DNA from: Blastocatellia bacterium
GTDB taxonomy: Bacteria > Acidobacteriota > Blastocatellia > UBA7656
Direction of reading: 5' to 3'
DNA: 64,000 nucleotides
Assembly: GCA_963765495.1 (NCBI GenBank)
Contig: CAVXWP010000009.1
Coordinates: forward strand, 269,653-333,652
Both the position numbers and the translations under genes were made by a program. Shown here one piece after another: positions 402 through 51,900 of the stretch; position 1 is the first letter of the stretch, and the number at the start of each line of letters is the position of its first letter. Under the pieces are notes generated by a model that had not been told where the DNA came from, made no database searches, and worked only from the letters and a program-made list of their open reading frames with translations.

Positions 402-1133
402 TTACACCTGCAAGAACGCCCCGGGGTCGTTGAAGTGCGACGTCTCGCCTTTGGGCCATTGGTAGAGATGGCTCGTATCAACGACGATCTGGCCCGACGG
501 GTCAATCTCGACGTGCGCCCGGTCCATGGGCCGGGGCGCGGGCCCCTCGAAGTTTATGCCTTCGCTTGTATAGCCGCTGCCGTGACACGGGCATTTGAAC
601 TTGTTCTCGCTGGGCTTCCAATCAGGTGTGCATCCGAGGTGAGTGCAACGCGCATAGATGACAAAGAGCCGCTCGGCGTTGCGAACGACCCAGACGCGAT
701 AGTCCTGTTGGAATTTGGTGTCTACTCCGAAACCGAAGTCCGAGGGGTAACCGATGCGAAATACAGTACTGGGCTCGAAGAGTGTGCGCGGGAGGAAGAA
801 TCGCAGAAACATCAGGAAGCAGGTGGCAAGAAAACCACCTATAGAAATCCATATGATGCGGCGGCGCACCTTGTTTACGGGGTCCGGGGGCTCGGTCTCG
901 ACCGTTTTGGTCCTGGCACCTGCCGAAGTCCCGACCGCCTTTTGAGCGGGCTTAGCGGGTTTATCTGCGGTTGTTGCCGATGCCTTTGCCGCCGGTACCG
1001 GAGCTTTAGGCTTCACTTCAACCTTTGGCTTTTCTGCTGTTTTCGTCTCGCCTTCAACTGTTGGCGTTGCTACTTGCTTCTCCTCGACCGTCTGGTTTGT
1101 ATCTTGCTCGGTGTCCATGCCGGAGGTCTCCAA
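402..1133 (-). CDS. Rieske [2Fe-2S] iron-sulfur subunit of a cytochrome bc/b6f-type complex, with a long Pro/Lys/Ala-rich N-terminal extension
   Basis: 243 aa ORF with the two Rieske boxes CTHLGC and CPCHGS, one TM helix and an acidic/PK-rich N-terminus. A plausible SD (GGAGACC) lies upstream of the ATG at 1133. Confidence 0.85.
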   Translation of the reverse strand: METSGMDTEQDTNQTVEEKQVATPTVEGETKTAEKPKVEVKPKAPVPAAKASATTADKPAKPAQKAVGTSAGARTKTVETEPPDPVNKVRRRIIWISIGGFLATCFLMFLRFFLPRTLFEPSTVFRIGYPSDFGFGVDTKFQQDYRVWVVRNAERLFVIYARCTHLGCTPDWKPSENKFKCPCHGSGYTSEGINFEGPAPRPMDRAHVEIDPSGQIVVDTSHLYQWPKGETSHFNDPGAFLQV

Positions 1134-1472: not shown

Positions 1473-1693
1473 CAGGGCCATTCAGTTTTTGAGTAGCGGA
1501 CAACAGACGGAAGAAATGTTAAAAGTTGTATTCAAGCAAAGGCGAGTTGAAATAGGCCGGGACGGACGCGGATGCGGCGGATTTTCGCGGATCTGACCCA
1601 ATTAGGTTTAATCCGCGAAAATCCGCCGCATCCGCGTCCGTCCCGGCCTATTCCCAGTTTCCTTATCTACACTTTGAAAACTGAATGGCCCTG
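1473..1693. mobile_element. MITE-like non-autonomous element copy 1 (~220 bp; terminal inverted repeats GGGCCATTCAGTTTTTG ... CAAAACTGAATGGCCC; internal ~93-bp perfect hairpin 1556-1648)
   Basis: Same architecture recurs at about 13448-13649, 15548-15750 and 33487-33707. A solo inner hairpin sits at about 21203-21244. This copy is inserted inside a CACGNATCACG-type palindromic unit. Confidence 0.7.
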
Positions 1694-1792
1694 TCACTCT
1701 TCACACATCACTCTTCACGCATCACGCATGCCCTTTTGAGATCGCGGCCCCCGTGCTATAAAGCCTCTGAGCCTCTATCAGGTTATTAACCC

Positions 1793-2737
1793 ATGTCGAA
1801 AATGCGAGAAAAAGCGCCTGAGCCGGGCACTGCCGCTGTGCTGGCGGCTATGGGGTTTGCCGTCATCGCGCTGGCCTTCTCTTCCATATTTATAAGACAA
1901 CTCGACCGGGCCGGAGTCGCTCCCCTAGCAATAGCTTTTCACCGCATGATGCTTGCCACGCTCCTGTTGATCCCGGCGGCGCTCCTGTTCAAGCGGCGCG
2001 AAATCATGAGTCTCAACCGTCGCGATCTTTTTCTGCTCGCTCTGGGAGGCTTCTTTCTTGCCGTCCATTTCGGCGCATGGATCACATCGCTCAGCTATAT
2101 CCCCATAGCCACTTCTGTAGTGCTGGTAAACAGCCATCCGCTCTTTGTAGTCGTTGCGTCTTATCTGTTTCTCGGAGAAAGACCCGGACGCCGCAGCCTG
2201 TTCGGGACGGCCACGGGGCTTGCGGGGATGATAATAATAAGCGGCGACGGGTTGAGGGATGTGCAGCAGGCGCTCGTGGGCGACGCGCTTGCGCTCGTGG
2301 GCGCTCTCGCCGTTGTAGGATATTTCATAATAGGTCGCAGCGTTCGCGCCCGCGTGAGCCTGCTCGGCTATGTCACACCGCTTTACGCCGTCTCGACGGT
2401 CTTCCTGCTGGGATGGGCTCTTGGGACATCCACCCGGCTTTATCCCTACGAGGCTAAAGAGTGGGCTCTGTTTGCGGCGCTTGCCGTGGTGCCGACGATA
2501 CTCGGGCACACCGTCTTCAACTGGGCGATCAAACACGTTCGGGCCTCGGCCATATCAATCGCCTTCTTAGGCGAGCCGGTCATTGCCTCGGCGCTCGCAC
2601 TGGCCTTCTTTGGCGAACGCCCGCCCCTTGCTACCTTTATCGGCGGGGCGCTTGTGCTTGCCGGGATATACCTGACCACGTCTTCTCCAAAATCGGCGCG
2701 CGCGCAATCGGATCGTCTCACCACGGCTACCGAATGA
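1793..2737 (+). CDS. EamA/DMT-family (drug/metabolite) transporter
   Basis: 314 aa, about 10 predicted TM helices, two EamA-like halves. The antisense ORFs overlapping it are judged spurious. Confidence 0.75.
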   Translation: MSKMREKAPEPGTAAVLAAMGFAVIALAFSSIFIRQLDRAGVAPLAIAFHRMMLATLLLIPAALLFKRREIMSLNRRDLFLLALGGFFLAVHFGAWITSLSYIPIATSVVLVNSHPLFVVVASYLFLGERPGRRSLFGTATGLAGMIIISGDGLRDVQQALVGDALALVGALAVVGYFIIGRSVRARVSLLGYVTPLYAVSTVFLLGWALGTSTRLYPYEAKEWALFAALAVVPTILGHTVFNWAIKHVRASAISIAFLGEPVIASALALAFFGERPPLATFIGGALVLAGIYLTTSSPKSARAQSDRLTTATE

Positions 2738-2805
2738 CCCGACGGGGCGCGGGCTATATGCGCCTGCCGTATGCTATTATTGCCCAAACAAAAAAGGAGG
2801 CTAAA

Positions 2806-3000
2806 ATGGCATCTGACAAAGCCGACCTCTCAAAATTGCGAGAGATTTTACACACTGCTATGGTCGAAGTAGAGGTGGCCCTTGATACAAACACCTACCC
2901 GGATTGGGCCGATACCAAAGAGAGCCTGCTCAGAGCAATCGAGATAGTTCGCAAACTTGAACGCGATCAGATGTGGACGATGCTCTCAAAGAAAAAATGA
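2806..3000 (+). CDS. Small hypothetical protein (64 aa), helical, acidic
   Basis: Strong SD AAAAAGGAGG 6-8 nt upstream of the ATG at 2806. It is the downstream part of the listed ORF 2461..3000. No recognisable domain. Confidence 0.5.
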   Translation: MASDKADLSKLREILHTAMVEVEVALDTNTYPDWADTKESLLRAIEIVRKLERDQMWTMLSKKK

Positions 3001-3034
3001 TCCGTTTTTTGATAAAGTGTTTTGCAAACTTCGC

Positions 3035-4615
3035 CTACAGATTAACCTGCTTGACCGAAATCACATCCGTAAGCGCCGTAAGCCCCGCAAGCGCTGCGTC
3101 AGGCATAGACTGGTCAATCTGTATGATCGCAAGCGCCGTTTCGCCTATTTTCTTGCGGCCCAGATACAGACGGCTTATGTTTATGCCGTTCTCGCCGATG
3201 AAAGTCGCTATGCGACCGAGCACGCCCGGCACATCGCGGTTGAAGATGATCAACATGTGCCCTCTCGGGATCGCTTCCAGATTGAATCCGTTTATGCGGA
3301 CTATGCGACCCTGATTGTTACCAAACAGCGCGCCGGCCACCTCGCTTTCGTGGTCGGTTGTGACGGCGCGCACTCTCATCATGCTCGTGAAATCGCGCGC
3401 CCGCCGCGAAGACGATACAGATACCTTTATGCCGCGCTCTTCGGCCACTATTGAAGCGTTGACCATATTGACCCGCTCAATCACCGGACCCAGCAACCCC
3501 GCCAGCACCGCCTGAGTTATCGGCTTGACATCGTGCGCGGTCACTTCGCCGGAATACTCTATATCAATAGCTCGCAGGTCGTGCCCGAAGACCTGCCCCT
3601 GAAAGAATCCTATCTTTTCGCCAAGCGTGATGTAAGGGCCGATGGCAGCGAGCAATTCCCCGCTGACGGCAGGAATATTGACCGCGCCTCGCACCGTCCC
3701 GGTCTTCAGATAATCCAGAACCTGTTCGGATATCATAGTCGCTACGCCGAGTTGAGCTTCCTGCGTAGAAGCCCCGAGATGCGGCGTTGTGATGACCTGA
3801 TCCATCGCAAGCAGCGGGTTATCGGCGGGGGTCGGTTCCTGCTCAAACACATCGAGCGCAGCGCCCGCAACCTGCCCCGAACCGATGGCTTCGGCAAGCG
3901 CCCGCTCTTCAATCAGACCGCCGCGAGCGCAGTTGATTATCCGCACGCCGGGCTTCATCTTTGCAATGGTCGAGGCGTCTATCATCCACCGGGTCGCATC
4001 AGTAAGCGGGGTATGCAGAGTTATGAAATCCGCCTGCGTGAATACCTCGTCAAGCGTGGTCATCTCGATGTCGAGGTCGCGCGCGGCTTCGGGTGTGAAG
4101 TAAGGGTCAAAGGCGACGATGTTCATGCCGAACCCGCGCGCCCGCAAAGCCACGGCAGAGCCTATACGACCCAGGCCGATAATGCCGAGCGTCTTTCCTC
4201 TCAACTCAACGCCCAGAAAACGGGTCTTTTCCCACCTACCCGCTTTCGTCGAAGCAACAGCCTGTGGAATCCGCCGGGCAAGCGACAAAAGCATTGCCAT
4301 CGTATGCTCGGCGGTAGTGACGGTATTTCCCGCTGCGGCATTCATAACGACTATGCCGCGCCGGGTGGCCGCCGCAACGTCTATGTTATCGACTCCGGTT
4401 CCCGCGCGCCCTACAACACGCAACCGAGCGGCGCGCTCGATCAACTCGGCGGTAACTTTTGTCTTGCTACGCACAATCAGCCCGTTGTAATCGCCTATTA
4501 TCTGAGCAATTTCCTCGGCGTTCAAGGAGGGGCGCTCGTCAATTTTCACGCCCTGGGCCTGGCGCAATATCTCGACACCCGTCTCTTCCAACCCATCGCA
4601 AACAAGTATTTTCAT
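3035..4615 (-). CDS. serA: D-3-phosphoglycerate dehydrogenase with C-terminal ACT domain
   Basis: 526 aa; starts MKILVCDGL; 2-hydroxyacid dehydrogenase NAD-binding G-x-G-x-x-G region; C-terminal ACT-like regulatory domain; SD AGGGG upstream. Confidence 0.9.
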   Translation of the reverse strand: MKILVCDGLEETGVEILRQAQGVKIDERPSLNAEEIAQIIGDYNGLIVRSKTKVTAELIERAARLRVVGRAGTGVDNIDVAAATRRGIVVMNAAAGNTVTTAEHTMAMLLSLARRIPQAVASTKAGRWEKTRFLGVELRGKTLGIIGLGRIGSAVALRARGFGMNIVAFDPYFTPEAARDLDIEMTTLDEVFTQADFITLHTPLTDATRWMIDASTIAKMKPGVRIINCARGGLIEERALAEAIGSGQVAGAALDVFEQEPTPADNPLLAMDQVITTPHLGASTQEAQLGVATMISEQVLDYLKTGTVRGAVNIPAVSGELLAAIGPYITLGEKIGFFQGQVFGHDLRAIDIEYSGEVTAHDVKPITQAVLAGLLGPVIERVNMVNASIVAEERGIKVSVSSSRRARDFTSMMRVRAVTTDHESEVAGALFGNNQGRIVRINGFNLEAIPRGHMLIIFNRDVPGVLGRIATFIGENGINISRLYLGRKKIGETALAIIQIDQSMPDAALAGLTALTDVISVKQVNL

Positions 4616-4633
4616 GAATTCTAACCCCTATCG

Positions 4634-4768
4634 GTGAATCGTAATACGTGATGCGTGACCGAACCTGTCAGGTAATCACCGATTGCTGATAATTCTGCTA
4701 TAAGTCACGAATCACGAATCACGGTTCACGTTTCCCGCATCACGCATCGCTCTTCACGAGTCACGGAA
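4634..4768. repeat. Representative unit of a dispersed intergenic palindromic repeat family: [GTGATNCGTGA]n - 40-60 nt spacer containing CCGRACCTGWCAG - [TCACGNATCACG]n
   Basis: Further copies at about 1366-1476 plus 1694-1735 (split by a MITE), 7082-7187, 22594-22693, 25271-25360, 33395-33486 plus 33708-33740 (split by a MITE), 40139-40234, 45585-45700 and 62455-62532. All are intergenic and occur in either orientation. Confidence 0.75.
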
Positions 4769-4843
4769 TTGTACCCGACAGACAGGCACGTCGCCACTCG
4801 AAGCCATAACCTGTGTTATATTAGGCGGCATCGGAGGTGTCTT

Positions 4844-5296
4844 ATGCCGTCAAAGTCGGAGTGTCGAATGGATGTGGTTCTGAAGGTTATCAGCGATCAA
4901 TGGACGCTCAGCATCATCCATAAACTCAGCGACGGACCGCGCCGCACATTGGAGCTTTTCGGCGCATTTACCGGAATGAGCACAAAGACATTGAACGCCC
5001 GTCTCAAGAAACTTGAGCGCGACGGCGTAGTGACGAGAATCTCTTACCCGGCATCGCCGCCGCGAGTCGAGTATTCGCTGACCGAAAAAGGGCGCGAGCT
5101 TATTCCTGTACTCGATGCGATAGCAAGGGTGGCATTCAAGTGGAGCGGGCCGTTTCAAACCGACAAAGCAGAAACGCCGTGCCGCGTGTGCGGCAGCTCT
5201 TACAACAGACTGGCATACGAAGAAAAAGCGTCACCCTCGCCCGAGCCTCCCCCCAGACCCCGGTCCCGCAAACTGACCGACGTGACACTACTTTAG
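4844..5296 (+). CDS. HxlR-family winged-helix transcriptional regulator with an unusual Cys/Pro-rich C-terminal tail
   Basis: HxlR-type HTH (VLKVISDQWTLSIIHKLSDGPRRTLELF...YSLTEKG). A GGAGG SD lies 7 nt before the ATG at 4844, so the listed ORF start at 4769 is probably an N-terminal over-extension. Confidence 0.75.
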   Translation: MPSKSECRMDVVLKVISDQWTLSIIHKLSDGPRRTLELFGAFTGMSTKTLNARLKKLERDGVVTRISYPASPPRVEYSLTEKGRELIPVLDAIARVAFKWSGPFQTDKAETPCRVCGSSYNRLAYEEKASPSPEPPPRPRSRKLTDVTLL

Positions 5297-5419
5297 AGGG
5301 ATGAGGGATGAGGGATGAAAAAGATTCTGGCGCATGATCTTGATTAAAAGCGGCTTGCTGATTATCAGAAGAGTTCCTGAGAGTCCTTTTCATCCCTCAT
5401 CCCTCATCCCTCATCCCTT
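5297..5419. repeat. Heptamer-armed palindromic element: (GGGATGA)3 - ~70 bp conserved spacer - (TCATCCC)3; likely bidirectional terminator between convergent hxlR-like and HD-GYP genes
   Basis: Perfect heptamer arms. The spacer is about 85% identical (in inverted orientation) to the spacer of the second copy at about 51703-51900. Confidence 0.7.
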
Positions 5420-7063: not shown

Positions 7064-7188
7064 GAAGAATCCCCTGTTGAAAGTGATTCGTGACGAGTGA
7101 GGAGTGACGAGTGACGCAAGCAGGGTGGCAGGTTATCAAAAACCTGCGCCTTGCCCGATAGTCACGCATCGCGCATCACGCATCACTA

Positions 7189-9608: not shown

Positions 9609-11261
9609 CTACTGTCCTTCCGCTTTGGGCTCTTCATAAACCGCGACACAATTGCGTCCGAGTGTCTTCGCGTGGTAAAGGGCGCGGTCGGCTGTCTCGA
9701 TTATCGCGAGGGGGCTTTGCCTGGTGGGGCTGAAAGAAGAAACGCCTATGCTGATGGTAACCTTGCCCATAGTTTCGCCGTGTTCGGTGCGGTACTCAGT
9801 CTGATTTATCGCCTTCCGCAATCGCTCGGCAATGCGCCCGGCATCATTGATCTGTGTTTCGGGCAGCACTATGCAAAACTCATCGCCCGCAAAACGGGCC
9901 GACATATCAATGGCGCGAATGCCTCGCTTGAGCATATGCGCCGTTTTGACCAGCACGCGATCCGCGTTCGTGTGGCCGTAGATGTCGTTGTAACCCTTAA
10001 ACCTGTCCACGTCAATAATCATAAAAGAGAGCGGCGTGTCGTGGCGCTTCGACCGCTCGACCTCTTCATAAAGCCTCTCTTCGAGATAACGGCGATTTGG
10101 CAGCCCCGTAAGCGGGTCGGTCAAAGACATCTGCTGATAGGCTTCGGCCTTGCGGTGCCATTCGGTGCGCTCGATTATGAGCGCGAGTTGCGGAGCCATC
10201 AGTTCGAGCAGTGAGAGGTCTTCGTTTTCATAGGCCGAACCGTCCACACGATCAGACAGATTGATGACGCCCACCTTGCGCGGGCCGAGCGTGATCGGAT
10301 AGCTGATGAATGAGCCGGTCTTATACTGGCCCCGGCGCGGTCGCGGAATCCTCTGGTCGGTCTCTACGTCGCGGACCATAAGCGCCGCCCCGCTGGCAAG
10401 CACTTCCCCGGCAATGCCCTCGCCGAGCTTTACGCGAACCGGCCCGAATCTCTGAAAATCGGCCCCCACAGCCGCCTCGAGCGCAAGCTCGTTTGACTGC
10501 TCGTTGAGGATCATAAGCGAACTGCGCTCCGATCTCATGATCTCGCTGAATTTGGCCAGCACCGATGAGTAAACCTTTTGCGAATCGAGCGTAGCGGCTA
10601 CGCTGCGAAGAAAGTCGTAGAACTGAGATATGGCCCGATTCTTGTTTTCGAGTTGATCGGCGAGTCTTATTACTTCCAGATGCGCATCAAGCAGAGCCGG
10701 AGAAATATCGGTCTCCAGTTCCGGCTCGGCCTCGCGTTTTGGCGCGGATTTGAAGTTGTATTCGAGAGTAGAGGCGACAAGGCTCGCGGCCTGGCGCACC
10801 TCGCGCAGATCGGCAAATCTCATATTGGTCAGGGCTTCGCCGGTTCTTATCGCGTCTGTGTCGCCGTGTTCGCGGAGAAAGCGTGTGTATTCAGCCGAAG
10901 AGGTAAAGGCGCGTCCGCCAAGCACTGTCAGTTGCCTCCCGGCTATTTCGACCGGGACGGCGAAACATTGCAACCCCGCGTGGCAGCGAAACTCCGTCGC
11001 CTCGCCTGCTTCGGTTGCCCGGCTGTGAGCGCCTCCGCAGTCGGCCGCGCACAGTGGCGCGTATTCTGAAGTGCTCTGTAGCGAGCGGCAAATGCTGTTG
11101 TCGTTTTCAACCTGAGAGATTGGCTGGCCGTCAGAACCGATTGTCGTTAAAGCCAGCCCGGTCTTTTCAGCAAGTGTTCGCTGAAGGCGAAACCATACGA
11201 CAACGGGATCGTCCGTTTCGCGCCTTGAAACGCTTGTACTTCTGGCGATTTCTTTGCTCAA
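9609..11261 (-). CDS. Sensor diguanylate cyclase: PocR-like Cys/His sensor domain + GAF + GGDEF (motif variant AGDEF)
   Basis: 550 aa. N-terminal CxxxxGG...CHAGL pattern resembles PocR; central GAF; C-terminal GGDEF fold with RFAGDEF. It has a TTG start and no clear SD, so the start is uncertain. Confidence 0.7.
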   Translation of the reverse strand: MSKEIARSTSVSRRETDDPVVVWFRLQRTLAEKTGLALTTIGSDGQPISQVENDNSICRSLQSTSEYAPLCAADCGGAHSRATEAGEATEFRCHAGLQCFAVPVEIAGRQLTVLGGRAFTSSAEYTRFLREHGDTDAIRTGEALTNMRFADLREVRQAASLVASTLEYNFKSAPKREAEPELETDISPALLDAHLEVIRLADQLENKNRAISQFYDFLRSVAATLDSQKVYSSVLAKFSEIMRSERSSLMILNEQSNELALEAAVGADFQRFGPVRVKLGEGIAGEVLASGAALMVRDVETDQRIPRPRRGQYKTGSFISYPITLGPRKVGVINLSDRVDGSAYENEDLSLLELMAPQLALIIERTEWHRKAEAYQQMSLTDPLTGLPNRRYLEERLYEEVERSKRHDTPLSFMIIDVDRFKGYNDIYGHTNADRVLVKTAHMLKRGIRAIDMSARFAGDEFCIVLPETQINDAGRIAERLRKAINQTEYRTEHGETMGKVTISIGVSSFSPTRQSPLAIIETADRALYHAKTLGRNCVAVYEEPKAEGQ

Positions 11262-13313: not shown

Positions 13314-13351
13314 GTCGGGGCCGTTGCGCGAAAAGCGAAACGGAATGAGAC

Positions 13352-13431
13352 AGGATAAACAGGATTAGATTGGATTAGACAAGAATTTTGTCTAATCCAA
13401 TCTAATCCTGTTTATCCTGTCTAAGAAAATT
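13352..13431. terminator. Perfect ~37-bp-arm inverted repeat (AGACAGGATAAACAGGATTAGATTGGATTAGACAAGAATTTTGTCTAATCCAATCTAATCCTGTTTATCCTGTCT), 40 bp downstream of the sigma-54 regulator stop
   Basis: Very stable hairpin with a 5-nt loop. Internally it is made of (GGATTAGAT / ATCTAATCC)-like repeats. Confidence 0.55.
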
Positions 13432-13447: not shown

Positions 13448-13649
13448 CAGGTCCATTCAGTTTTTGACTTGCGAGCTGTATGCGACAAAATTTTGCAGGT
13501 TAATTCGAACGAAAGGCGAGTGGGAATAGGCCGGGACGGACGCGGATCTGACACTATTTGGACGAATCCGTGCTAATCCGCCCGATCCGCGTCCGTCCCG
13601 GCCTATTTCTATTTTCCAATTCTACATTTTGGAAAACTGAATGGCCCTG
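13448..13649. mobile_element. MITE-like element copy 2 (TIR GTCCATTCAGTTTTTG ... AAAACTGAATGGCCC; inner hairpin 13530-13603)
   Basis: Conserved frame AAAGGCGAGTGGGAATAGGCCGGGACGGACGCGG ... CCGCGTCCGTCCCGGCCTATT as in copy 1, with a different loop. Confidence 0.7.
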
Positions 13650-15522: not shown

Positions 15523-15547
15523 AGGCCTCAGGACCATTCAGTTTTTG

Positions 15548-15750
15548 GCCCGCGAGCATTTGGCGTCAAAAACCTTAAAGGTTAATTTGACCGAAGGGTT
15601 TCCGCTAATAGGCCACGGATGACACGAATCGGACGGATTTACGCGGATCGAGTCATATAAGCTTCAGATCAGTGTAAATCCGTCCGATTCGTGTCATCCG
15701 TGGCCTATTCCCATTTCCATTATTTATATTCTGAAAGCCGATTGGACCTG
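15548..15750. mobile_element. MITE-like element copy 3 (left TIR GACCATTCAGTTTTTG; degenerate right TIR; inner hairpin 15611-15705 with diverged stem sequence)
   Basis: Same framework and spacing as copies 1, 2 and 4. Together with copy 2 it flanks the FAD amine oxidase gene. Confidence 0.6.
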
Positions 15751-21166: not shown

Positions 21167-21202
21167 GCGATAGTCATCCGGTCTCCCGCAACAGGTAGTT
21201 CA

Positions 21203-21244
21203 GGCGAATAGAAATAGGCCGGGACGGCCTATTTCTATTCGCCT
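21203..21244. terminator. Solo copy of the MITE inner-hairpin base (GGCGAATAGAAATAGGCCGGGACGGCCTATTTCTATTCGCC) downstream of the protease gene
   Basis: Perfect 19-bp arms that share the AATAGGCCGGGACGG motif of the MITE inner stem. Lies 37 bp after the stop at 21166. Confidence 0.5.
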
Positions 21245-22579: not shown

Positions 22580-22760
22580 AAGCCCTGCCAATGCATGATG
22601 CGTGATTATCGTGATGCGTGATTCGTGATTTAGCAGGCTTGCAAGTCGTTTAAAATCGGCGGCCTGCCTGAAAGTCACGAATCACGCATCGTTTCCCCCA
22701 TCTTTGAAGCAAGTAATCACTCGTGTTAATATGCGTTTCAGGGTGTTTTGGGAGGATGAT

Positions 22761-23024: not shown

Positions 23025-23054
23025 GCAATCAGCCCGAAAAAATTCGCCACAGAG

Positions 23055-23099
23055 GCACAAAGACACAGAGAAAAGATTTTGATAAACCTCTGTGTCTTT
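23055..23099. terminator. Strong hairpin, probable Rho-independent terminator after the small Cys protein gene
   Basis: 24-bp perfect arms CCACAGAGGCACAAAGACACAGAG / CTCTGTGTCTTTGTGCCTCTGTGG with a 17-nt loop. Confidence 0.55.
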
Positions 23100-23251
23100 G
23101 TGCCTCTGTGGCTATTTCGACCTTTTAGAGCCTTCACGCTTTTGTCAAAACCTTGCTTCTCAGGTTAAAATATATCTTACGATGCAACGAGCCTTGAACC
23201 CGGCCGATGCTGCTCTGTCCTGGCTTTTCATTTTTTGTTGAGGAGACTTAG

Positions 23252-25264
23252 ATGATTGAAAGTTTGATTCATCGGGAGGTTGAGAAACGCCCGTCCAAAG
23301 TTCAGATCAAGGGCAGGATTCTCTTTCTTGCCGAAGAAGCCGAACTGGTGAGAACCCAGATTGAAGGCAATGATTTAGACATAAATAATATCCCTTCGCT
23401 CAGGAATGACATTTCCACAGACGAGATCACGCCAGCCTATATTTGCTATCATTTTGATGAAAAGCTGGGCGAGTTTGTCTATATCGGGCTCAAGTGCGGC
23501 GATGAGTTCCCCATAAAACGCGGCGATGTGAAAAACGGAGGTTTCGAAGTCTCCGTATCGGGCAAGCGACGGGGCAAGGGCTCAAGCCGCGAACAATCCC
23601 CTTACGCTGAAATCGCCGCGGGCATTCGCCTCGTAATAGCCGAAAACATCGAACGGATTTACAGGCAGAACTGCCAGAACCTCGGCCTGCTCACCTCGAC
23701 CGATTTCAGCCTCATCCCTCGCATAGCCCGGGGTGAAGAGATACCGCTCGAAGAATTCACGCGCGGCGAAGACGAGATAACACGCCAGATCATCGAGTAC
23801 GGCGGGCTGTTTACTTTCAACGTAGCGCGGCTTCAGGGCAAAGTCTCTTTGCCTGAAATCACGACCCAAAAACGTCCGATGACGCTGGCCGAAAAAATCT
23901 TTGCGAATCGCTTTGTCACCGATCCGGCAAAAGGCGCTACGGGAGTCGAAGCGGTCAAGCCGGGCGACACAGGTTTTGTCCGTACCGATATTCGGTTCAG
24001 CCACGAATACGTAACGCCGATGGCGGCGATTTTTTATGAATCGCTGGTCGGCAACGAACCCGTCAACGATCCGTCGTCAATATACTTTTTCCAGGACCAC
24101 CTGACTTTTCTTGACGACGTGATGCCGCCCGAGCGGCGCGCTATGGGATTGCTCGATCTGGCGCACGAGCTTATACGCAAACAGGCGGAGTTTGCCGACA
24201 AGCAGGGCATACGTCTGCACGGACAACTCAAGGATCGCAAAGGCTCCGAGGCGATCTGCCATAGCCTTATCCTTCAAAACTACGCCCTGCCCGGCCAGAT
24301 CATCATCGGCTCGGATTCTCACACGCCGCACGCGGGAGCCGTCGGATGCATAGCCTTCGGCGTGGGAACTACCGATATATTCAATTCCTGGATCACGAAA
24401 GATGTCCGCGTACGCGTGCCCGAACAGGTGCAGATAAAAGTCACCGGACACAAGCCCGACAACATCACCGCGAAAGATTTCATGCTTGCGATACTCAGGA
24501 CCGACTTTGTCCGAAACGGCGACGCTATCGGCAAGATAGTCGAATACACGGGTGAAGCCGTAAGCGACCTCAACATTGACGAGCGCGCCACGATGACCAA
24601 CATGGCCGCCGAGGTAGGAGCCTTCACAGGGCTTGTCGGGGCCGATGAAAAGACCGTCGAATTTCTTATGGAGCGAGGTCTCTCGCCGGATGAAGCCGCT
24701 CGATTATGCGAGGGGATGCAAAGCGACCCCGATGCCCAGTATGCGCTTACCATAGAGATCGACGCGAACCAGTTGCGCCCGATGGTGGCGACTCCCGGCG
24801 ATCCCGGAAACGGCGTCTATATCGACGAGTTGCCCGGCACGGTCAAGGTTGACATCGCATACGGCGGGTCCTGCACGGCGGGCAAAAAAGAAGATATGGA
24901 TATGTATGCGCGGGTGTTTCGTGAAGCCCTCGTTCGCGGGCAGCGCGTTCACCCCGACACCCAGTGCTTTATTCAATTCGGCTCGCAGGAGGTTCGCAAG
25001 CACTGCGAGCAGCAGGGCTACATTGACATATTCGAGCAGGTCGGCGCGACGATAATAGAGCCGAGTTGCGGGGCCTGCATCAACGCCGGTCCCGGGGTCA
25101 GCACCTTGAAGGAGCAGGTAGTTATCAGCGCGCAGAATCGAAATTTCCCAGGGCGCAGCGGACCCGGTCAGATGTATCTGGCCTCGCCCTATACCGTGGC
25201 TGCCTCCGCGATAGCCGGGCACATAGTCGAATACCGTCCCGCTTCGGCAGCCTCTGTCAAGTAA
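23252..25264 (+). CDS. Aconitase-family hydro-lyase with N-terminal LeuD-like swivel domain fused to a LeuC-like catalytic domain
   Basis: 670 aa; SD GAGGAG; aconitase-family signatures GSDSHTP and the Cys ligand region; domain order is swivel first, then the catalytic domains. Confidence 0.75.
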   Translation: MIESLIHREVEKRPSKVQIKGRILFLAEEAELVRTQIEGNDLDINNIPSLRNDISTDEITPAYICYHFDEKLGEFVYIGLKCGDEFPIKRGDVKNGGFEVSVSGKRRGKGSSREQSPYAEIAAGIRLVIAENIERIYRQNCQNLGLLTSTDFSLIPRIARGEEIPLEEFTRGEDEITRQIIEYGGLFTFNVARLQGKVSLPEITTQKRPMTLAEKIFANRFVTDPAKGATGVEAVKPGDTGFVRTDIRFSHEYVTPMAAIFYESLVGNEPVNDPSSIYFFQDHLTFLDDVMPPERRAMGLLDLAHELIRKQAEFADKQGIRLHGQLKDRKGSEAICHSLILQNYALPGQIIIGSDSHTPHAGAVGCIAFGVGTTDIFNSWITKDVRVRVPEQVQIKVTGHKPDNITAKDFMLAILRTDFVRNGDAIGKIVEYTGEAVSDLNIDERATMTNMAAEVGAFTGLVGADEKTVEFLMERGLSPDEAARLCEGMQSDPDAQYALTIEIDANQLRPMVATPGDPGNGVYIDELPGTVKVDIAYGGSCTAGKKEDMDMYARVFREALVRGQRVHPDTQCFIQFGSQEVRKHCEQQGYIDIFEQVGATIIEPSCGACINAGPGVSTLKEQVVISAQNRNFPGRSGPGQMYLASPYTVAASAIAGHIVEYRPASAASVK

Positions 25265-25373
25265 TTAATGACACTTGATGCGTGATGCGTGAGATTTGCG
25301 ACGAGTTTTTAATCAGCTACCTACCTGAAAATCACGCATCACGCATCAAGTGTCACTCTGAGGAGATAACTCG

Positions 25374-27494
25374 ATGGCCGTTCAACCACAGGCAGAAAAG
25401 TATCACGGGCTGGACCGCGAGACCATGTTGAAGATTTACCGTCTGATGTACACCTCTCGGCGGGTAGACGATAAAGAGATTCAACTGAAGCGGCAGAACA
25501 AGATCTACTTCCAGATCTCCGGCGCGGGCCACGAAGCCGTTCTGGTCGCCGCCGGACTCGCGCTCAGGCCCGGATATGACTGGTTCTATCCCTACTACCG
25601 CGACCGCGCATTGTGCCTTGCGGTGGGAGTGACGGCGACCGACATGCTCATGCAGGGAACGGGCGCGGCGGCCGATCCGAGTTCGGGTGGCCGCCAGATG
25701 CCGAGCCACTGGGGACATAAAGACCTGAATATCGTCACGCAATCATCGCCTACGGGGACGCAGTTCCTGCAAGCCGTGGGCTGCGCCGAGGCCAATTACC
25801 GGGCCGAATTGATTGGCAACCCCGAAAAACTTATTCGGGGCTATAAACCTGACTCTGTGGTTTACGTATCGGCGGGGGACGGCACGACGAGCGAAGGCGA
25901 ATTTTATGAATCTCTGAATACGTCCTGCAATCTGAAACTCCCTGTGCTCTATGTGATTGAAGACAACGGTTACGCGATTTCGGTCCCCGTTGAAGTTCAG
26001 ACCGCGGGCGGGAGCATATCGAAACTCGTGAGCGGGTTCCCGAATTTGATGGTCGAAGAGGTGGACGGCTGCGATCCCATAGCGAGTTACGAAGTCCTGA
26101 AGCGCGCTGTCTCGTACTGCCGCGAGCGACGCGGTCCGGCGCTTGTTCACGCGCATGTTATCCGGCCTTATTCTCACTCTCTTTCCGACGACGAAATGCT
26201 TTACCGGCCCGCAACCGAGCGTGAACGCGAAGCCGAACGCGATCCGACCCGCACTTTCGCAGCTTATCTGATCAATGAAGGGCTTGCGACTGAGGAAGAT
26301 CTCAAACGCCTGACCGAAGAGGTTGATGAGGAAGTCAACCGGGCGGCAGATGCGGCAGACGCCGCGCCAAAACCGGGCAAGGAAACCGTTACTTTGTACG
26401 TTTACTCGCCCGATGTTGACCCGACATCGAAGGAGTTCGACTCGGAAACATCTGAGCCTCCATCGGGCGATCAAAAGACGATGGTCGATCTTATCAACGC
26501 GTGTCTGACCGACGAGATGGCCAGAGACGAACGAATTGTCGTCTTTGGCGAAGACGTAGCAGATTGCAGCCGCGAAGAGAATATCGAAACCGTCAAAGGC
26601 AAAGGCGGGGTCTTCAAGGTCACGCACAACCTGCAACGCCGGTACGGAAGCGACCGGGTATTCAATTCGCCTCTGGCCGAGGCCAACATCATCGGGCGCG
26701 CAACGGGAATGGCTACGCGGGGGCTGAAGCCCGTGCCCGAAATTCAATTTTTCGATTACATCTGGCCCGCGATGCATCAGCTTCGCAACGAGATCCCGCT
26801 CATACGCTGGCGCTCAAACAACAACTTCAAATGCCCTATGGTGATTCGCGTGGCCACGGGCGGATACCTGACGGGAGGGGCGGTCTATCACAGCCAGTGC
26901 GGTGAGAGCATCTTTACACACACGCCGGGGATGCGAGTGGTGATGCCCTCGAACGCGCTCGATGCAAACGGACTCTTGCGCACCGCGATTCGCTCGGATG
27001 ATCCGGTGATGTTCCTCGAACACAAACACCTCTACCGCCAGACCCACAACAAGGGGGCATATCCAGGACCGGATTATATGATTCCCTTTGGCAAGGCAAA
27101 GGTAGTGCGGGCGGGCACCGACATTTCGATCATCACTTATGGGGCTACGGTCTATCGCTCAATCGTGGCGGCAAGAAAAGCAGAAGAAGAACACGGCCTG
27201 AGCGTGGAAGTCATAGACCTCCGATGTCTTAGTCCCTACGATTGGGAGACCATAAGCGAATCCATCGGCAAGACGAACAAGGCGCTGGTCGTTCACGAAG
27301 ACACCCGGAGCTGGGGCTACGGCGCTGAGATAGCCGCCCGAATCGCCGATGAGTTATTCGAATATCTCGACGGACCCGTTCGCCGCGTGGCCGCGCTCGA
27401 TACGTTTGTGGCCTACTATCCGGGGCTGGAAGACGCGATATTGCCTCAGGCGGATACAATCAAATCGGCCCTCCTCGACCTCGCGCGTTATTGA
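25374..27494 (+). CDS. Fused E1 alpha-beta component of a 2-oxoacid (branched-chain keto acid/pyruvate-type) dehydrogenase
   Basis: 706 aa; N-terminal TPP-binding E1-alpha region, C-terminal transketolase-like E1-beta region; SD GAGGAG. Confidence 0.8.
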
Positions 27495-33394: not shown

Positions 33395-33486
33395 TATGAT
33401 GCGTGATTATCAGGAAGGCTGTTTGTAAAGACCAACTCCCAAGCCTGCTTGCGTCACGCTTCACGCATCACGAATCACGAGTCACG

Positions 33487-33707
33487 CAGGGCCATTCAGT
33501 TCTTGAGTTGAGGGCAATAGGCGGAAAAAATATTAAAGGTTGAATTGACGCAAAGGCGAGTTGAAATAGGCCGCGGATGACGCGGATGCGGCGGATTTTC
33601 GCGGATCTGACCCAATTAGGTTTAATCCGCGTAGATCCGCTCGATCCGCGTTATCCGCCGCCTATTCCCCTTATCCTTTTCTACATATTGGAAAACTGAA
33701 TGACTCT
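33487..33707. mobile_element. MITE-like element copy 4 (TIR GGGCCATTCAGTTCTTG ... AAAACTGAATGACTC; inner hairpin ~33570-33662 nearly identical to copy 1)
   Basis: The inner-hairpin loop GCGGATCTGACCCAATTAGGTTTAATCCGCG is shared with copy 1. Like copy 1 it is inserted in a CACGNATCACG unit (between tsaB and mutS). Confidence 0.7.
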
Positions 33708-33819
33708 GCGAATCACGAATCACGCTCCGCGAATCACGCCAATGGCGCTGGCCATTCTTTCCTTCGCGGTTTAATATAAATTTCCTAAGCCGAAATACTC
33801 AGGACCTGTTCCGAATCTT

Positions 33820-40115: not shown

Positions 40116-40229
40116 TCTTCGCTCCAAAGATAAGGGTAAGTGAATCGTGAATCGTGATTCGTGAAATAGCTGATTACCTGTTAATTGCCATCAGCCTGTC
40201 AGGTCCGGTCACGCATCACGCATCACGAT

Positions 40230-43771: not shown

Positions 43772-44857
43772 TCAAACCTCGACGCCCTTGGCGGTCACAT
43801 CTCTGATAGGCCTCTCTGTGCGCACAAGGTCTGCGCGAGAGATATAGATAAATCCGCCCGCGATGGCGTTCAGCAATATGGGCGCGAAAGCCAGAAACGA
43901 AAACATTAGCGCCTGCTCGCGCGCGATGCCTGCGCCAGCAAACAGGACTATGAGGGCCCATTCGCGAACGCCAAGCCCGCCCACTGAAATCGGCATCATC
44001 CTGATCAAATCAACAAGCGAGATAAAAGCAAAGATCAGCGGCAATCCGAGCGGCAAGCCCATAGCCTCTGCCACCACGTAACATCCAAGACTCCAAACCA
44101 CCCTTATCAAGACCGATACCAGAACGGTCGAGACGAGCATCCACGGATATTTTCTGAGTTCCGATATTGCTTCAAGCGTGCGCGAGGCGGCTTCGCCAAG
44201 ACGCTCGGCCTTAAATCGCCCGGTCTTAAATCGCCCGGTCTTAAATCGCCCGCCCATCCATCTAAACAATCGCGCGAGCCGCGACGAGACGTAATCGCTC
44301 ATCAAAAGCGACAGCGCGAGGAAGGCGAGCGCGAGCAGCGCCTCGCCCAGGTAGATCAATCGCCCCTCGGGCAGACGACCGTGGCTTGCAACCATTGCGC
44401 CCAGACCTATCAGCAACAGAACGAACAGCCCAACCGTCCTCTCATACACAAGCGTAGAGAGCACGAATGCCTTGTCGTGTATTTCGCGATCTACATAGAC
44501 CAGCCGCGCCACATCGCCGCTTACGCTTCCGCCAGGCACAAAATTGCTGAAAAAGATTCCGATAAGATAATAAACAAAAAGCCGATTTGTATTGATCCTG
44601 TGGCCGCGAACCCTCAGTATCAGGCCCCAGCGATAGGCCATCAGCCAGTTGACCATCACAGTAGCAAGCACCGCAAGCGGCAAAAGCGACACCCGCGTAG
44701 CCCGTATCGCCTCGGCCAATCCGCGAGCATCGGACCTCAGTATGACAATCGCAAGCGCGGTTATGCCTACCGTGATTTGAAGCACTCCGCGCAGGTTCAA
44801 TCCGCGCCGCCGCTCTACTACGGCAACCTCGTTTTCAGAATGACTTTGCGTACTCAT
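43772..44857 (-). CDS. Flippase-like domain protein (UPF0104 / lysylphosphatidylglycerol-synthase TM-region family) carrying an in-frame TGRFK x3 tandem repeat
   Basis: 8 TM helices and the conserved GGSVSGD loop. A 15-bp unit CTTAAATCGCCCGGT repeated 3 times at about 44210-44254 encodes GRFKTGRFKTGRFK. Overlaps the upstream GT2 (ATGA). Confidence 0.65.
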   Translation of the reverse strand: MSTQSHSENEVAVVERRRGLNLRGVLQITVGITALAIVILRSDARGLAEAIRATRVSLLPLAVLATVMVNWLMAYRWGLILRVRGHRINTNRLFVYYLIGIFFSNFVPGGSVSGDVARLVYVDREIHDKAFVLSTLVYERTVGLFVLLLIGLGAMVASHGRLPEGRLIYLGEALLALAFLALSLLMSDYVSSRLARLFRWMGGRFKTGRFKTGRFKAERLGEAASRTLEAISELRKYPWMLVSTVLVSVLIRVVWSLGCYVVAEAMGLPLGLPLIFAFISLVDLIRMMPISVGGLGVREWALIVLFAGAGIAREQALMFSFLAFAPILLNAIAGGFIYISRADLVRTERPIRDVTAKGVEV

Positions 44858-45582: not shown

Positions 45583-45698
45583 AGAGTGATCCGTGATGCG
45601 CGATACGCGATACGTGATTCGTGATTCGTGACCGGACCTGACAGCCAGTCAGCGTTTCCCTGCTATCTCCCTATAAATCACGCATCACACATCACGCA

Positions 45699-47439: not shown

Positions 47440-47580
47440 ACAGGGCTGTAACAAAGTCGGGTGGAAATGTAGGGGCAGGGCTTGTCCCTGCCCGGATCGC
47501 CCAAAGGGCGATGACAGCGATTCGGGCAGGGACAAGCCCTGCCCCTACATTACATTTCAAGCTACTTTGTTATAGCCCTG
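47440..47580. repeat. Nested ~140-bp palindrome containing two inverted copies of the GGGCAGGGACAAGCCCTGCCC(CTACATT) REP-like hairpin plus a GATCGCCCAAAGGGCGATGAC mini-hairpin, bounded by CAGGGCTGTAACAAAGT / ACTTTGTTATAGCCCTG
   Basis: Intergenic, between AP-family paralog 1 (start 47378) and the Wzx stop (47669). The same REP-like unit occurs inside the GT4 coding sequence at about 38640-38705. Confidence 0.7.
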
Positions 47581-51873: not shown

Positions 51874-51900
51874 CCCTCATCCCTCATCCCTCATCCCTCA
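51703..51900. repeat. Second, expanded copy of the GGGATGA-heptamer palindromic element (internally duplicated left arm)
   Basis: GGATGAAGGATGAGGGATGAGGGATTTCAGGAGGGATAAGGGATGAGGGATGAGGGATTTCAGGAGGGATGAGGGATGAGGGATGAGGGATGAAAA - spacer - TTTTTCATCCCTCATCCCTCATCCCTCATCCCTCA. Confidence 0.7.

Follow-up and report, generated by a model that had tools for sequence, protein, structure and literature searches.

Repeat units in the window

The window, which is the whole stretch of DNA that was analysed (64 kb), carries nine copies of a repeat-armed unit with a fixed layout, 5'-(CGTGANN)n – core – (NNTCACG)n-3'. The units and their neighbouring genes are listed below; A and B denote the two families of core sequence.

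1364-1729: unit 1, type A core; left arm 1364-1395, core 1396-1442, right arm 1443-1472 and 1694-1729; between divergent Rieske (402-1133, minus strand) and EamA (1793-2737, plus strand) genes; predicted RNA fold -62.6 kcal/mol, z -9.5
4634-4764: unit 2, type B core; left arm 4634-4658 (4 heptamers), core 4659-4704, right arm 4705-4764 (partly degenerate, 9 heptamers); flanked by the divergently transcribed serA (start 4615) and hxlR (4868)
7083-7186: unit 3, type A core, reversed; arms 7083-7114 and 7162-7186; between two minus-strand genes, one for a kinase (stop 7189) and one for a STAS protein (start 7063); fold z -5.3
22595-22692: unit 4, type A core, reversed; arms 22595-22628 and 22675-22692; begins about 15 nt past the stop codon of an acyl-CoA dehydrogenase gene; fold z -6.3
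25269-25355: unit 5, shortened type A core, reversed; arms 25269-25292 and 25332-25355, 24 nt each and perfectly complementary; follows an aconitase-family gene (stop 25264) and precedes that for PDH E1 (start 25374); fold z -7.5
33396-33737: unit 6, type A core; short left arm 33396-33409, core 33410-33453, right arm 33454-33486 and 33709-33737; between divergent tsaB-like and mutS genes
40138-40235: unit 7, type B core, reversed; arms 40138-40164 and 40209-40235; fold z -7.4
45586-45699: unit 8, type B core; left arm 45586-45631 (7 heptamers), core 45632-45677, right arm 45678-45699; takes up the entire space separating two minus-strand genes (stop 45699, start 45582)
62453-62532: unit 9, short B-like core (30 nt); arms 62453-62484 and 62515-62532; between tandem plus-strand genes; fold z -6.9

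That these copies form a real family, as the preliminary description of this DNA had proposed, is borne out by the census of the motif GTGATNCGTGA, which at up to one mismatch gives 51 matches in the window against 4.16 ± 2.15 in shuffled sequences (largest count 10). The matches cluster at the nine listed sites, the sole exception being a lone one-mismatch match at 24914. A search for period-7 chains of GTGA or TCAC returned 19 arrays, every one of them at the nine sites, and at all nine the TCAC array lies to the right of the GTGA array. Units 2 and 5 were recovered at 100% identity in two Logan assemblies of one sequencing run and are therefore not artefacts of the assembly of the window; contigs of the same strain from metagenomes end within these repeats.

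The tandem repetition of the arms, likewise described earlier, stands, with a period of 7 instead of the 11-mer first taken as the unit: according to both Tandem Repeats Finder (TRF) and the chain search, the arms at all nine sites are head-to-tail heptamers, 2-9 per array, in which CGTGA is invariant and the two remaining bases vary. Tandem tracts of period 7 number 18 in the window, and there is one tract each of periods 5 and 9 and none of periods 6, 8, 10, 11 and 12. The control loci (936 kb) contain three heptamer tracts and no CGTGA array, compared with 10 arrays in the 64-kb window. The spacer between the arms measures 30-47 nt across the nine units, not 40-60 nt.

A single arm is a direct repeat without self-complementarity, and pairing is possible only between one arm and the other. 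The predicted stems reach -36 to -63 kcal/mol, with z from -5 to -9.5 for most units; nine hairpin-forming units in 64 kb agree with the REP/BIME-like density that had been claimed. The variable positions of the heptamers mirror each other from arm to arm at 0.39, against 0.36 ± 0.024 when the order is shuffled. Since this does not exceed what shared composition gives, perfect pairing is not maintained, and the conserved 5-nt core CGTGA could instead be a mark of protein recognition.

Two families of core

The spacers fall into two unrelated, oriented families. Type A has five copies, forward in units 1 and 6 and as the reverse complement in units 3, 4 and 5; type B has four, forward in units 2 and 8, as the reverse complement in unit 7 and only weakly recognizable in unit 9. 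Homology of cores within a genome is evident for type A (z 4.8-13.9), for type B (z 3.3) and for two units of the related Blastocatellia lineage L190 (z 9.5). Between genomes it is not significant, with one of 36 comparisons reaching p 0.003. Arms and a genome-specific, oriented core have been copied together as whole units, five of type A and four of type B. A spacer beginning with CCGRACCTGWCAG and ending with CCTGAAARTCACG had been reported; both motifs are present, the latter being the reverse complement of the start of the type A core, and they belong to two spacer families, not one. Nor is the spacer structured in a conserved way, as both core families are genome-specific and have no conserved structure.

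Placement relative to genes and insertion of a MITE

All nine units in the window are strictly intergenic, as was first noted, and among 112 units in 106 sequences 111 are intergenic and one lies within a long ORF. With neighbour genes checked against Pfam, the context in the window is tandem for six units, divergent for three and convergent for none, so that the convergent placement also described earlier is not found. The distance from the upstream stop codon to the unit has a median of 14 nt and is at most 20 nt in 49 of 90 cases. Two minus-strand genes (40230-42023 and 51898-53541) take their stop codon from the TGA of an array; in the first, it is supplied by the outermost heptamer of unit 7.

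The insertion of a MITE-like element into two units is also real. In unit 1 the right arm is interrupted by 221 bp (1473-1693) with the 9-bp duplication TCACTCTTC, and in unit 6 the right arm is interrupted at 33487-33708 with the duplication CGAGTCACG/CGAATCACG; the units are insertion targets for the MITE. At the flanks of the nine units themselves neither a target-site duplication nor a terminal motif beyond the arrays was found.

Other heptamer-armed hairpins

At least three families of heptamer-armed hairpins share the window: CGTGANN, GGGATGA and GAGTTTT. Members of the latter two are as follows.

5296-5418: (GGGATGA)n – 70-nt core – (TCATCCC)n; exactly fills a convergent gene gap; fold z -8.6
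51704-51901: another unit with GGGATGA arms; in its core the homologue of the 5296-5418 core is inverted; its array provides the stop codon of gene 51898-53541 (minus strand)
56549-56609: (GAGTTTT)4 – 7-nt loop – (AAAACTC)n, without a core; between two minus-strand genes; fold z -8.7
57348-57418: another hairpin with GAGTTTT arms; between divergent genes; fold z -12.4

A TGA-bearing 5' arm was considered as a rule for all heptamer hairpins. It holds for all families of the window, but for only about five or six of nine independent families overall, and is a property of the CGTGANN family only.

Orthologous junctions in related Blastocatellia

The junction between the aconitase and PDH-E1 genes, occupied by unit 5 in the window, was compared in eight Blastocatellia lineages. 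It contains a repeat-armed hairpin in seven of the eight and is empty in one (L188/L191), where a 13-nt gap separates the two genes. The arm units found there are CGTGATG, CGTGAAC, TTTTRGA (two lineages), GAGGATC (two lineages) and GCAGAGG; those of L190 and of L192-L196 differ from the unit 5 repeat of the window. The Shine-Dalgarno sequence is retained in every lineage. The window, L188, L190, L192, L193 and L194 are approximately equidistant, with 81-83.5% amino-acid identity across these six lineages (L195 and L196 left out); protein sequences in the junction comparison have diverged by about 17%. L190 is, like the window, rich in arrays; the L188 species is poor in them, with one tract in 22 kb. 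At the site orthologous to unit 4, L190 carries a CGTGAAC-armed unit. At orthologous junctions, related Blastocatellia have acquired units, lost them or exchanged one for another. The occupancy of seven out of eight exceeds the expectation from general density, which points to a selected hairpin or to targeting, not to neutral spread.

Distribution and polarity in other genomes

Inverted CGTGANN arrays were found at no fewer than 105 loci in other genomes, from about nine phyla, and among 2.9 million viral contigs there was no match. Because the arms recur so widely, they are not binding sites of one local regulator, which had been named as a way in which the family might prove to be a local feature. 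The recurrent neighbour genes in the 105 loci are only ABC ATPases and response regulators, both ubiquitous, and neither a conserved neighbour gene nor a recurrent transposase was found across them. Polarity is constant: all nine units of the window and all eight extra units in the other loci examined have the same arrangement, and none is reversed (17:0). Across loci, the array pairs are convergent in 78 cases and divergent in none, with gaps of 2-61 nt. Close relatives were sought in metagenomes by way of MutS, where the best match, truncated and 78% identical, was uninformative.

Relation to described repeats

The arms had been noted as not matching familiar repeat families. Tandem heptanucleotide repeats are a described bacterial class (PMC4692102, PMC2700814), to which the CGTGANN hairpins belong as a newly found family. 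Close parallels are the GGGAATC repeats of Xanthomonas, intergenic tandem heptamers of which many occur as close opposite-strand arrays able to form a stem-loop, with about 70-75 convergent pairs per genome (Rehm et al. 2015, PMC4692102). In both cases two complementary arrays of intergenic tandem heptamers stand in convergent orientation. In Xanthomonas the type of repeat is usually kept between related species and the repeat length varies (PMC4692102). The heptamer here is a different one, in an acidobacterial host. Quadruplex-forming G-run units are specific to the GGGAATC/GGGGAYT subtype; as CGTGANN is free of G-runs, no quadruplex is expected from it. CGTGATK has no GG run, and in the window only the GGGATGA family would qualify. 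The genome-specific cores, the strict polarity and the spread across phyla documented here go beyond what is described in Xanthomonas.

In Geobacter metallireducens, 4-5 tandem heptanucleotides of the MTYCTGA class, mostly paired, were annotated from sequence only as putative global regulator binding sites and drawn looping between strands (PMC2700814). They share with the CGTGANN units the multicopy, paired arrangement and a TGA in the repeat; they differ in the heptamer and in a copy number fixed at 4-5, and no cores, polarity or cross-genome comparison were reported for them. More generally, heptanucleotides are over-represented among long simple sequence repeats, which are mainly intergenic and phylogenetically scattered and for which slippage has been proposed (Mrazek, Guo and Shah 2007, as related in PMC4679880 and PMC4692102). 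The excess of period 7 and the intergenic placement are shared. As far as that work is represented in the papers citing it, the arrays are treated as simple repeats, and paired, polar units with cores and their orthologous replacement are not described.

The STRR sequences of Calothrix and Nostoc are cyanobacterial heptamer repeats. TTTTGAA heptamers are found in Nostoc (bioRxiv 10.1101/2022.06.06.494920), and TAACTGA heptamers in Beggiatoaceae, where one of 170 sets is an indirect repeat (PMC4679880). These too are intergenic tandem heptamers, often adjoining start or stop codons, and some of their units resemble second families of the window (TTTTGAG, GATTTGA). They are mostly single direct arrays, unlike the units studied here, and the window is without HIP1 and not cyanobacterial. 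An STRR/HIP1 origin was rejected, as GCGATCGC occurs zero times in the window and the homologues are from Blastocatellia.

The comparison with REP, BIME and REPIN elements made at the outset is justified in part. The CGTGANN units are dense and extragenic, and they form inverted doublets that favour a single arrangement and fold into one long hairpin. For about half of them a stop codon is no more than 15-20 nt away, and target duplications are absent. The share of REPs at most 15 nt from a stop codon in E. coli is similar, 260 of 496 (PMC12306157), and REPs are likewise targets of IS insertion (PMC3116915, refs 41-42). The REP itself, however, is one imperfectly palindromic unit, 20-40 nt long and tagged with GTAG or CGTC (PMC3116915, PMC12306157). 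Each arm here, in contrast, consists of direct tandem repeats and is not self-palindromic; GTAG and CGTC are absent, and degenerate heptamers form the outer ends (..AATGC|GTGA.., TTGATG..). REP families also have a cognate RAYT gene, encoding a Y1 transposase, in the genome, most often with repeats on its flanks. Density, intergenic hairpins and the role of insertion target therefore hold; the self-palindromic unit and the tag do not. With MITEs and foldback elements the units share short length, lack of coding capacity, inverted ends and multiple copies with a common internal sequence. They differ from MITEs in having no target-site duplication and in ending in tandem arrays of variable length instead of defined terminal inverted repeats; the separate 221-bp MITE of the window, in contrast, does have 9-bp duplications.

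Several other identities were discarded. A terminator role, suggested earlier, is not found in canonical form, as no CGTGATK unit has a T/U tract or a terminator-like call on either strand. One promoter-like match, at background level, lies in the core of unit 2. Rfam gave no match at the gathering score, and at E ≤ 1 only sub-threshold hairpins of eukaryotic miRNA precursors, none at CGTGATK units. CRP-like sites (TGTGA-N6-TCACA) and parS-like sites (GTTTCAC|GTGAAAC) are both incompatible with the unconstrained arm spacing of 2-61 nt, and arms arranged as in parS would have the one polarity that is never encountered.

Interpretation

What kind of element are these hairpins? The explanation that we favour, at a probability of about one half, is that they are REP/REPIN-like non-coding hairpins which are copied whole, have their arms resized by slippage and act as intercistronic RNA hairpins. 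Copying would probably proceed through a single-stranded hairpin intermediate, with the enzyme encoded elsewhere; among the approximately 55 ORFs of the window no mobilising enzyme, transposase or RAYT was found. Since target duplications are absent, that enzyme may be RAYT/HUH-like rather than DDE-like. After copying, the arms would grow and shrink by replication slippage in 7-nt steps, which could account for the range of 2-9 heptamers per arm and for an excess of period 7 only. On either strand, the 5' arm would offer a TGA in each reading frame; translation then could not enter the element, and an insertion beside or into a stop codon would be harmless. When co-transcribed, a unit is predicted to fold into a stem of 20-35 bp that starts a few bases past the stop codon and ends before the Shine-Dalgarno sequence of the next gene. 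Such a stem might act in the manner of REPs, as a hairpin protecting or processing the 3' end and, within operons, as a barrier to ribosomes and polymerase. Against this explanation, neither a transposition intermediate nor presence/absence polymorphism at strain level was seen, and three of the nine units lie between divergent genes, where no 3' hairpin action is possible.

The orthologous junction also gives some weight to a second, possible though less probable explanation, in which the hairpins are selected RNA structures and not selfish DNA: operon junctions would need a long stem-loop lacking a U-tract for processing, stabilising or terminating, and since any hairpin built of repeats would suffice, sequence could turn over while the hairpin persists. 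This would explain why the aconitase|PDH-E1 junction is filled by five repeat units in seven of eight lineages, always between stop codon and Shine-Dalgarno sequence, why units adjoin stop codons, and why most junctions of the minus-strand glycosylation cluster (39-57 kb) have such a hairpin. Canonical terminator-like sites are at mere shuffle level in most of the window, so another type of terminator may be in use. Yet L188/L191 manage with a 13-nt gap and no hairpin, divergent promoter regions contain three of the nine units as well as one GAGTTTT hairpin, covariation between the arms is absent, and genome-specific cores in 4-5 copies indicate copy-and-paste, not local evolution. It is even less probable, though conceivable, that the arms are arrays bound by a sequence-specific protein, be it a global regulator or a nucleoid- or RNA-binding protein, that reads CGTGA every 7 nt. 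On the one hand, the 5-nt core is invariant while the two variable positions are uncompensated between arms, polarity is strict, the same CGTGA occurs in about nine phyla despite differing inter-arm cores, and similar proposals have been published, for example for Geobacter and Nostoc (PMC2700814; bioRxiv 10.1101/2022.06.06.494920; PMC4679880). On the other hand, neither the number of copies per arm (2-9) nor the arm-to-arm distance (2-61 nt) is constrained, the neighbouring genes have no function in common, unrelated heptamers occupy the same junction in related genomes, and no candidate protein is known.

The idea of a pure mutational by-product, generated by polymerase slippage in place without copying between sites and without function, is the least probable of all and is already largely refuted by the shared cores. 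The variable arm lengths suit it, as does the heptamer-specific excess, which fits the long simple sequence repeats ascribed to slippage (Mrazek 2007, as related in PMC4679880). In-place slippage, however, could not produce the same oriented 45-nt core at 4-5 loci or paired inverted arrays of one polarity (17:0), and it leaves the same heptamer in many phyla unexplained. A bolder proposal, which we consider rather unlikely, is that dedicated machinery recognises or writes heptamer arrays, perhaps by way of a hairpin-targeting enzyme able to install, lengthen or replace them. It is suggested by the same 5-nt core, 7-nt period and single polarity in about nine phyla despite genome-specific cores, and by the different heptamer hairpins at the same junction in related genomes. 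If true, such machinery would define a mobile or 'self-rewriting' element of a new kind and would explain the bacterial heptanucleotide excess that has long been noted.

Among the long simple repeats of bacteria, heptanucleotides are the most over-represented, as has been known since 2007, and their origin and role are poorly understood. The window offers a compact and well-defined case, with copy-and-paste cores, strict polarity, a heptamer shared across phyla and a junction filled many times. In practical terms, such repeats break short-read assemblies and give stop codons to annotated genes. The case turns a statistical excess into testable questions, namely which agent copies the units, whether hairpins are selected at the junction, and whether they serve as U-less terminators or processing sites in phyla where canonical terminators are scarce. 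As two cultured isolates, Lysobacter changpingensis CM-3-T8 and Chiayiivirga flava DSM 24163, have the same arms, these questions are open to experiment.

Architecture and copying of the units

The repeat family that the preliminary description placed at nine sites is borne out by the motif GTGATNCGTGA (at most one mismatch), which has 51 matches in the window against 4.16 ± 2.15 expected from dinucleotide-preserving shuffles (largest 10); all of them lie at the nine units listed below except one lone one-mismatch match at 24914. The arms consist of a 7-nt unit repeated head-to-tail (GTGATGC, GTGATTC, GTGAATC etc.), with CGTGA invariant and two variable bases, and chaining GTGA at exact 7-nt spacing gives 19 arrays of 2-9 units each, all at the same sites. 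The tandem-motif arms described earlier thus stand, as period-7 heptamers, and the spacers between them measure 30-47 nt, not 40-60 nt. On the + strand every unit has its GTGA array on the 5' side and its TCAC array on the 3' side. Nor did a single spacer type with a typical start and end survive alignment, which separates the spacers into two oriented core families.

Core families of the window units (unit starts in brackets)
Type A, consensus CTTTCAGGCAGGCCGCC…GCAAGCCTGCTTGCG: units 1 (1364) and 6 (33396); reverse-complemented in units 3 (7083), 4 (22595) and 5 (25269)
Type B, CCGGACCTGACAG…CTAT..TATAAA: units 2 (4634) and 8 (45586); reverse-complemented in unit 7 (40138); weakly in unit 9 (62453)

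Within families the similarity of the cores is far over that of shuffles (z 4.8-13.9 for type A, 3.3 for type B), and the two types bear no relation to each other. No fold is conserved among the cores of the window units, and no such core was found in the fetched loci of other genomes. Because oriented cores are shared, it is the whole unit, arms plus core together, that gets copied, with the core in either direction between the arms; slippage in place alone is ruled out by the same observation. Two Logan assemblies of run ERR11718635, identical (100%) to window 1664-5324 and 23049-25427, take in units 2 and 5, which are therefore no artefact of the window's assembly, and three of the four ends of these two sequences lie within repeats, so their repetitiveness is sufficient to interrupt assembly from short reads.

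Gene context, stop codons and folding

The genes flanking the nine units are ordinary chromosomal genes, and no transposase was found among the approximately 55 window ORFs scanned. An NtrC-like protein of the window has 84% identity to one from a Blastocatellia MAG. Six of the nine units separate co-oriented genes and the other three divergent ones, so that of the tandem, divergent and convergent settings first proposed the convergent one is not represented (0 of 9). The units almost fill their intergenic gaps: 0-3 nt are left on each side of unit 8, and unit 5 begins 5 nt past the preceding stop codon, its end being 18 nt short of the following gene's start, where GAGGAG remains as the ribosome-binding site. 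The TGA of the outermost heptamer is itself the stop codon of the genes at 40230-42023 (- strand) and 51898-53541 (- strand). As the sequence itself shows, an array of three or more CGTGANN units has a TGA in each of the three frames, and the complementary arm is without stop codons; since the polarity is fixed, a ribosome arriving on either strand meets the all-frame TGA.

In RNA folding most units form a single long stem (-36 to -63 kcal/mol, z -5 to -9.5), and units 2, 6 and 8, with unequal or degenerate arms, fold more weakly (z -1.2 to -2.6). The suggestion that the units may be terminators was not upheld for canonical terminators, as no T-tract follows any of the nine and not one of them is called terminator-like, whichever strand is read. 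Of the three 20-kb window stretches scanned, two have no more terminator-like sites than shuffles, and the first has a modest excess (37 vs 23.5 ± 5.3). Rfam gave no match at the gathering score and just generic miRNA-hairpin noise at E ≤ 1; target-site duplications are absent at the units.

The same arms in other genomes

The GTDB species set, scanned with the self-complementary pattern CGTGATKCGTGA-N{30,60}-TCACGMATCACG, holds at least 105 matching loci against about 0.3 expected (calculated for uniform base composition), so the earlier view of a dispersed family, not merely a local site, was right. The same pattern has no match in 2.9 million viral contigs.

Matching loci by label of the record, among the matches listed
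Chloroflexota: 41
Acidobacteriota: 26
Verrucomicrobiota: 12
Pseudomonadota: 8, including the isolates Chiayiivirga flava DSM 24163 and Lysobacter changpingensis CM-3-T8
Rhodothermia/Bacteroidota: 7
Gemmatimonadota: 2
Planctomycetota: 2
Nitrospirota: 1
Desulfobacterota: 1
Actinobacterial labels on MAG contigs: 2
Unlabelled: 3

At these loci the arrays run well past the pattern ends, and the spacers, which vary in size between tiny loops and some 60 nt, show no relation between genomes; core families can occur within one genome, TAGTGCGGAGTAAGCC being common to three loci of one Chloroflexia MAG. All eight extra paired units in the fetched loci share the polarity of the window units, with no reversed case, which gives 17:0 for the window together with units away from the selecting match, a polarity established within genomes only. 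Among the matches listed no protein family recurs beside the units, just ubiquitous ABC ATPases and response regulators. Only 1 of 112 units examined lies inside a long ORF; the classifiable ones (44 tandem, 23 convergent and 14 divergent gene pairs) do not differ significantly from background gene pairs, and an upstream stop codon is at a median distance of 14 nt (at most 20 nt in 49 of 90). The variable dinucleotides are more similar between the two arms of one unit than between arms of different units (0.39 vs 0.24 ± 0.03), and their order is not mirrored between arms beyond shared composition (0.39 vs 0.36 ± 0.024). The related Blastocatellia locus L190 (1588-1677 and 5758-5781) has another family with a GTGA core, (GTGACAA)n…(TTGTCAC)n; what several families in these loci have in common is GTGA, the other three bases varying by family and genome.

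Turnover at an orthologous junction

The aconitase/PDH E1 junction was fetched from seven other Blastocatellia lineages (L190, L192 to L196, and L188 with L191 counted as one) via 82-85% identical relatives of the window's aconitase-family protein. Six lineages (window, L188, L190, L192, L193 and L194) are roughly equidistant in two proteins (80.8-83.5% identity).

Content of the aconitase/PDH E1 junction
Window: (CGTGATG)n unit, shortened type A core
L188/L191: empty, 13 nt, TGA-TCTGGAGGAACGC-ATG
L190: (CGTGAAC/CGTAAAC)n, own core
L192: (TTTTRGA)n
L193: (TTTTRGA)n, core unlike that of L192
L194: (GAGGATC)n
L195: (GAGGATC)n
L196: GCAGAGG-type arms, 8-9-mer

This comparison shows that units are gained, lost or replaced at one site, and also that a unit persists vertically within the clade L194/L195. 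The L190 core recurs at that lineage's ACAD/aconitase junction, the site of unit 4 in the window. In every filled junction the hairpin starts 0-10 nt past the stop codon and stops right before the Shine-Dalgarno sequence. Occupancy, in seven of eight lineages, is higher than expected from the general array density, other 22-kb loci having just 0-7 strict tracts each.

Two further features of this neighbourhood were observed. Upstream of the aconitase-family gene, a promoter-like TTGTCA-N18-TAAAAT (window 23142-23171, L188 ~9892-9921, L190 ~9921-9950, also L192 and L193) is conserved in sequence and position in at least five Blastocatellia lineages. Just 3' of the aconitase-PDH pair, some relatives carry defence-type genes (HamA with a DEAD helicase, XisH/XisI, AbiEii, TIR; L194 14461-19151, and downstream of PDH E1 in L195 and L196), so a variable island adjoins the junction.

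Other repeats and the MITE

A wider survey of the window, Tandem Repeats Finder and our own period scan included, revealed further repeats.

Other repeats in the window
5296-5418: (GGGATGA)n…(TCATCCC)n, same architecture as the CGTGANN units
51704-51901: (GGGATGA)n…(TCATCCC)n, same architecture, 33-nt higher-order repeat in left arm
56549-56609 and 57348-57418: (GAGTTTT)n…(AAAACTC)n hairpins, tiny loop
53553-53580: single GATTTGA array, also grouped with GAGTTTT/TCTCAAA hairpins
49533-49568: (GATTTGA)5 array inside an uninterrupted 888-aa YfhO-like ORF (49207-51873, - strand)
23041-23117: intergenic hairpin with 8-mer-repeat arms, not heptamer-built
13348-13422: long intergenic palindrome, perfect 35-nt arms, not heptamer-built
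47466-47551: long intergenic palindrome, 35-nt arms 97% complementary, not heptamer-built
60510-60585: 13-mer tandem repeat CTGGATAACTCGA, 5.8 copies, filling the usp/SNF-transporter gap
44202-44252: 15-mer tandem repeat, 3.4 copies, within an LPG-synthase-like ORF

There are 18 strict tracts of period 7 in the window, compared with 1, 0, 0, 1, 0, 0 and 0 for periods 5, 6, 8, 9, 10, 11 and 12. The 64-kb window holds 10 CGTGA arrays of at least three units; control loci of diverse bacteria (936 kb, fetched via MutS) hold 3 heptamer tracts and no CGTGA array. By our own count a repeat-built hairpin or MITE occupies about 20 of the 27 window intergenic gaps of at least 40 nt. The two GGGATGA units have a common core of about 70 nt in opposite orientation; their GGA/GGAUG may be reminiscent of CsrA-type motifs. 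The hairpins at 53553-53580, 56549-56609 and 57348-57418 separate consecutive genes of a - strand cluster (39-57 kb) that encodes glycosyltransferases along with four to five paralogues of a type I phosphodiesterase. One GATTTGA unit more or fewer would shift the frame of the YfhO-like ORF, which makes this a possible phase-variable gene.

The separate MITE (221 bp, ends CAGGGCCATTCAG…CTGAATGGCCCTG, long internal palindrome with 63-nt arms) has four copies in the window.

MITE copies
1473-1693: 9-bp duplication TCACTCTTC, in 3' arm of unit 1
33487-33708: duplication CGAGTCACG/CGAATCACG, in 3' arm of unit 6
13448-13649: duplication TCACACACT
15529-15750: no clear duplication
21202-21244: fragment

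That two units serve as its insertion site, as first noticed, is confirmed by the copies with duplications in units 1 and 6; a third copy lies in TCAC-type sequence. Since the 9-bp target duplications (three of four copies) each start with or contain TCAC(G), the MITE appears, from its insertion sites, to target 3'-arm heptamer arrays, a parallel to the IS elements that target REPs (as cited in PMC3116915, refs 41-42). Separately, CGATCG occurs once in the window (at 54247) vs 46 ± 7 expected and GCGATCGC not at all, with GATC plentiful (362); such strong avoidance suggests a PvuI-type restriction system.

Origin and affinities of the family

The units form a dispersed intergenic hairpin family of fixed polarity, in which tandem-heptamer arms are copied together with cores specific to each genome; they lie close to stop codons and turn over at an orthologous junction. 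On this reading, arm length would alter through slippage, and an enzyme whose gene lies elsewhere would copy the units by a single-strand route through a hairpin. TGA in all frames would make insertion next to stop codons tolerable, and the units may act as REP-like intercistronic or 3'-end RNA hairpins. Of 496 REPs in E. coli, 260 lie no more than 15 nt from a stop codon, and REPs at that distance stall ribosomes (PMC12306157).

The main alternative would have selection maintain a hairpin as such at operon junctions, with turnover of its sequence, and the occupancy of one junction in seven of eight lineages favours this; as the whole story we regard it as rather unlikely, given that the L188 site is empty, that some units lie in divergent regions and that cores are shared between units. 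Protein-binding arrays would be consistent with a 5-nt core that does not vary, with variable positions that are not compensated between arms and with the spread across phyla; we hold this explanation to be decidedly improbable.

The copied hairpin family works like REP/REPIN, and to that extent the REP/BIME-like label was apt. However, its repeat is not self-palindromic and its units are without the GTAG/CGTC tag; with two defining features failed, it should not be filed as REP. To our knowledge, the mechanism is known for none of the heptamer repeats of Mrazek, Xanthomonas, Geobacter, Nostoc or Beggiatoaceae. These are the closest described objects: heptanucleotide long simple sequence repeats (Mrazek 2007, as cited in PMC4679880), inverted GGGAATC pairs of Xanthomonas (PMC4692102), paired heptanucleotide 'regulator sites' of Geobacter (PMC2700814), and the Nostoc and Beggiatoaceae heptamers (bioRxiv 10.1101/2022.06.06.494920; PMC4679880). 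The heptamer-hairpin kind, which the preliminary description had not recognized in the arms, was thus already described, the Xanthomonas pairs being an example. A full-text literature search with dimers of the window heptamer returned just two matches, both unrelated, from a plant paper and a fungus paper. We rate the family as a previously undescribed member of the heptamer-hairpin kind. It adds to heptamer repeats a cross-phylum core, polarity and junction turnover, which make the old question of why heptamers testable.
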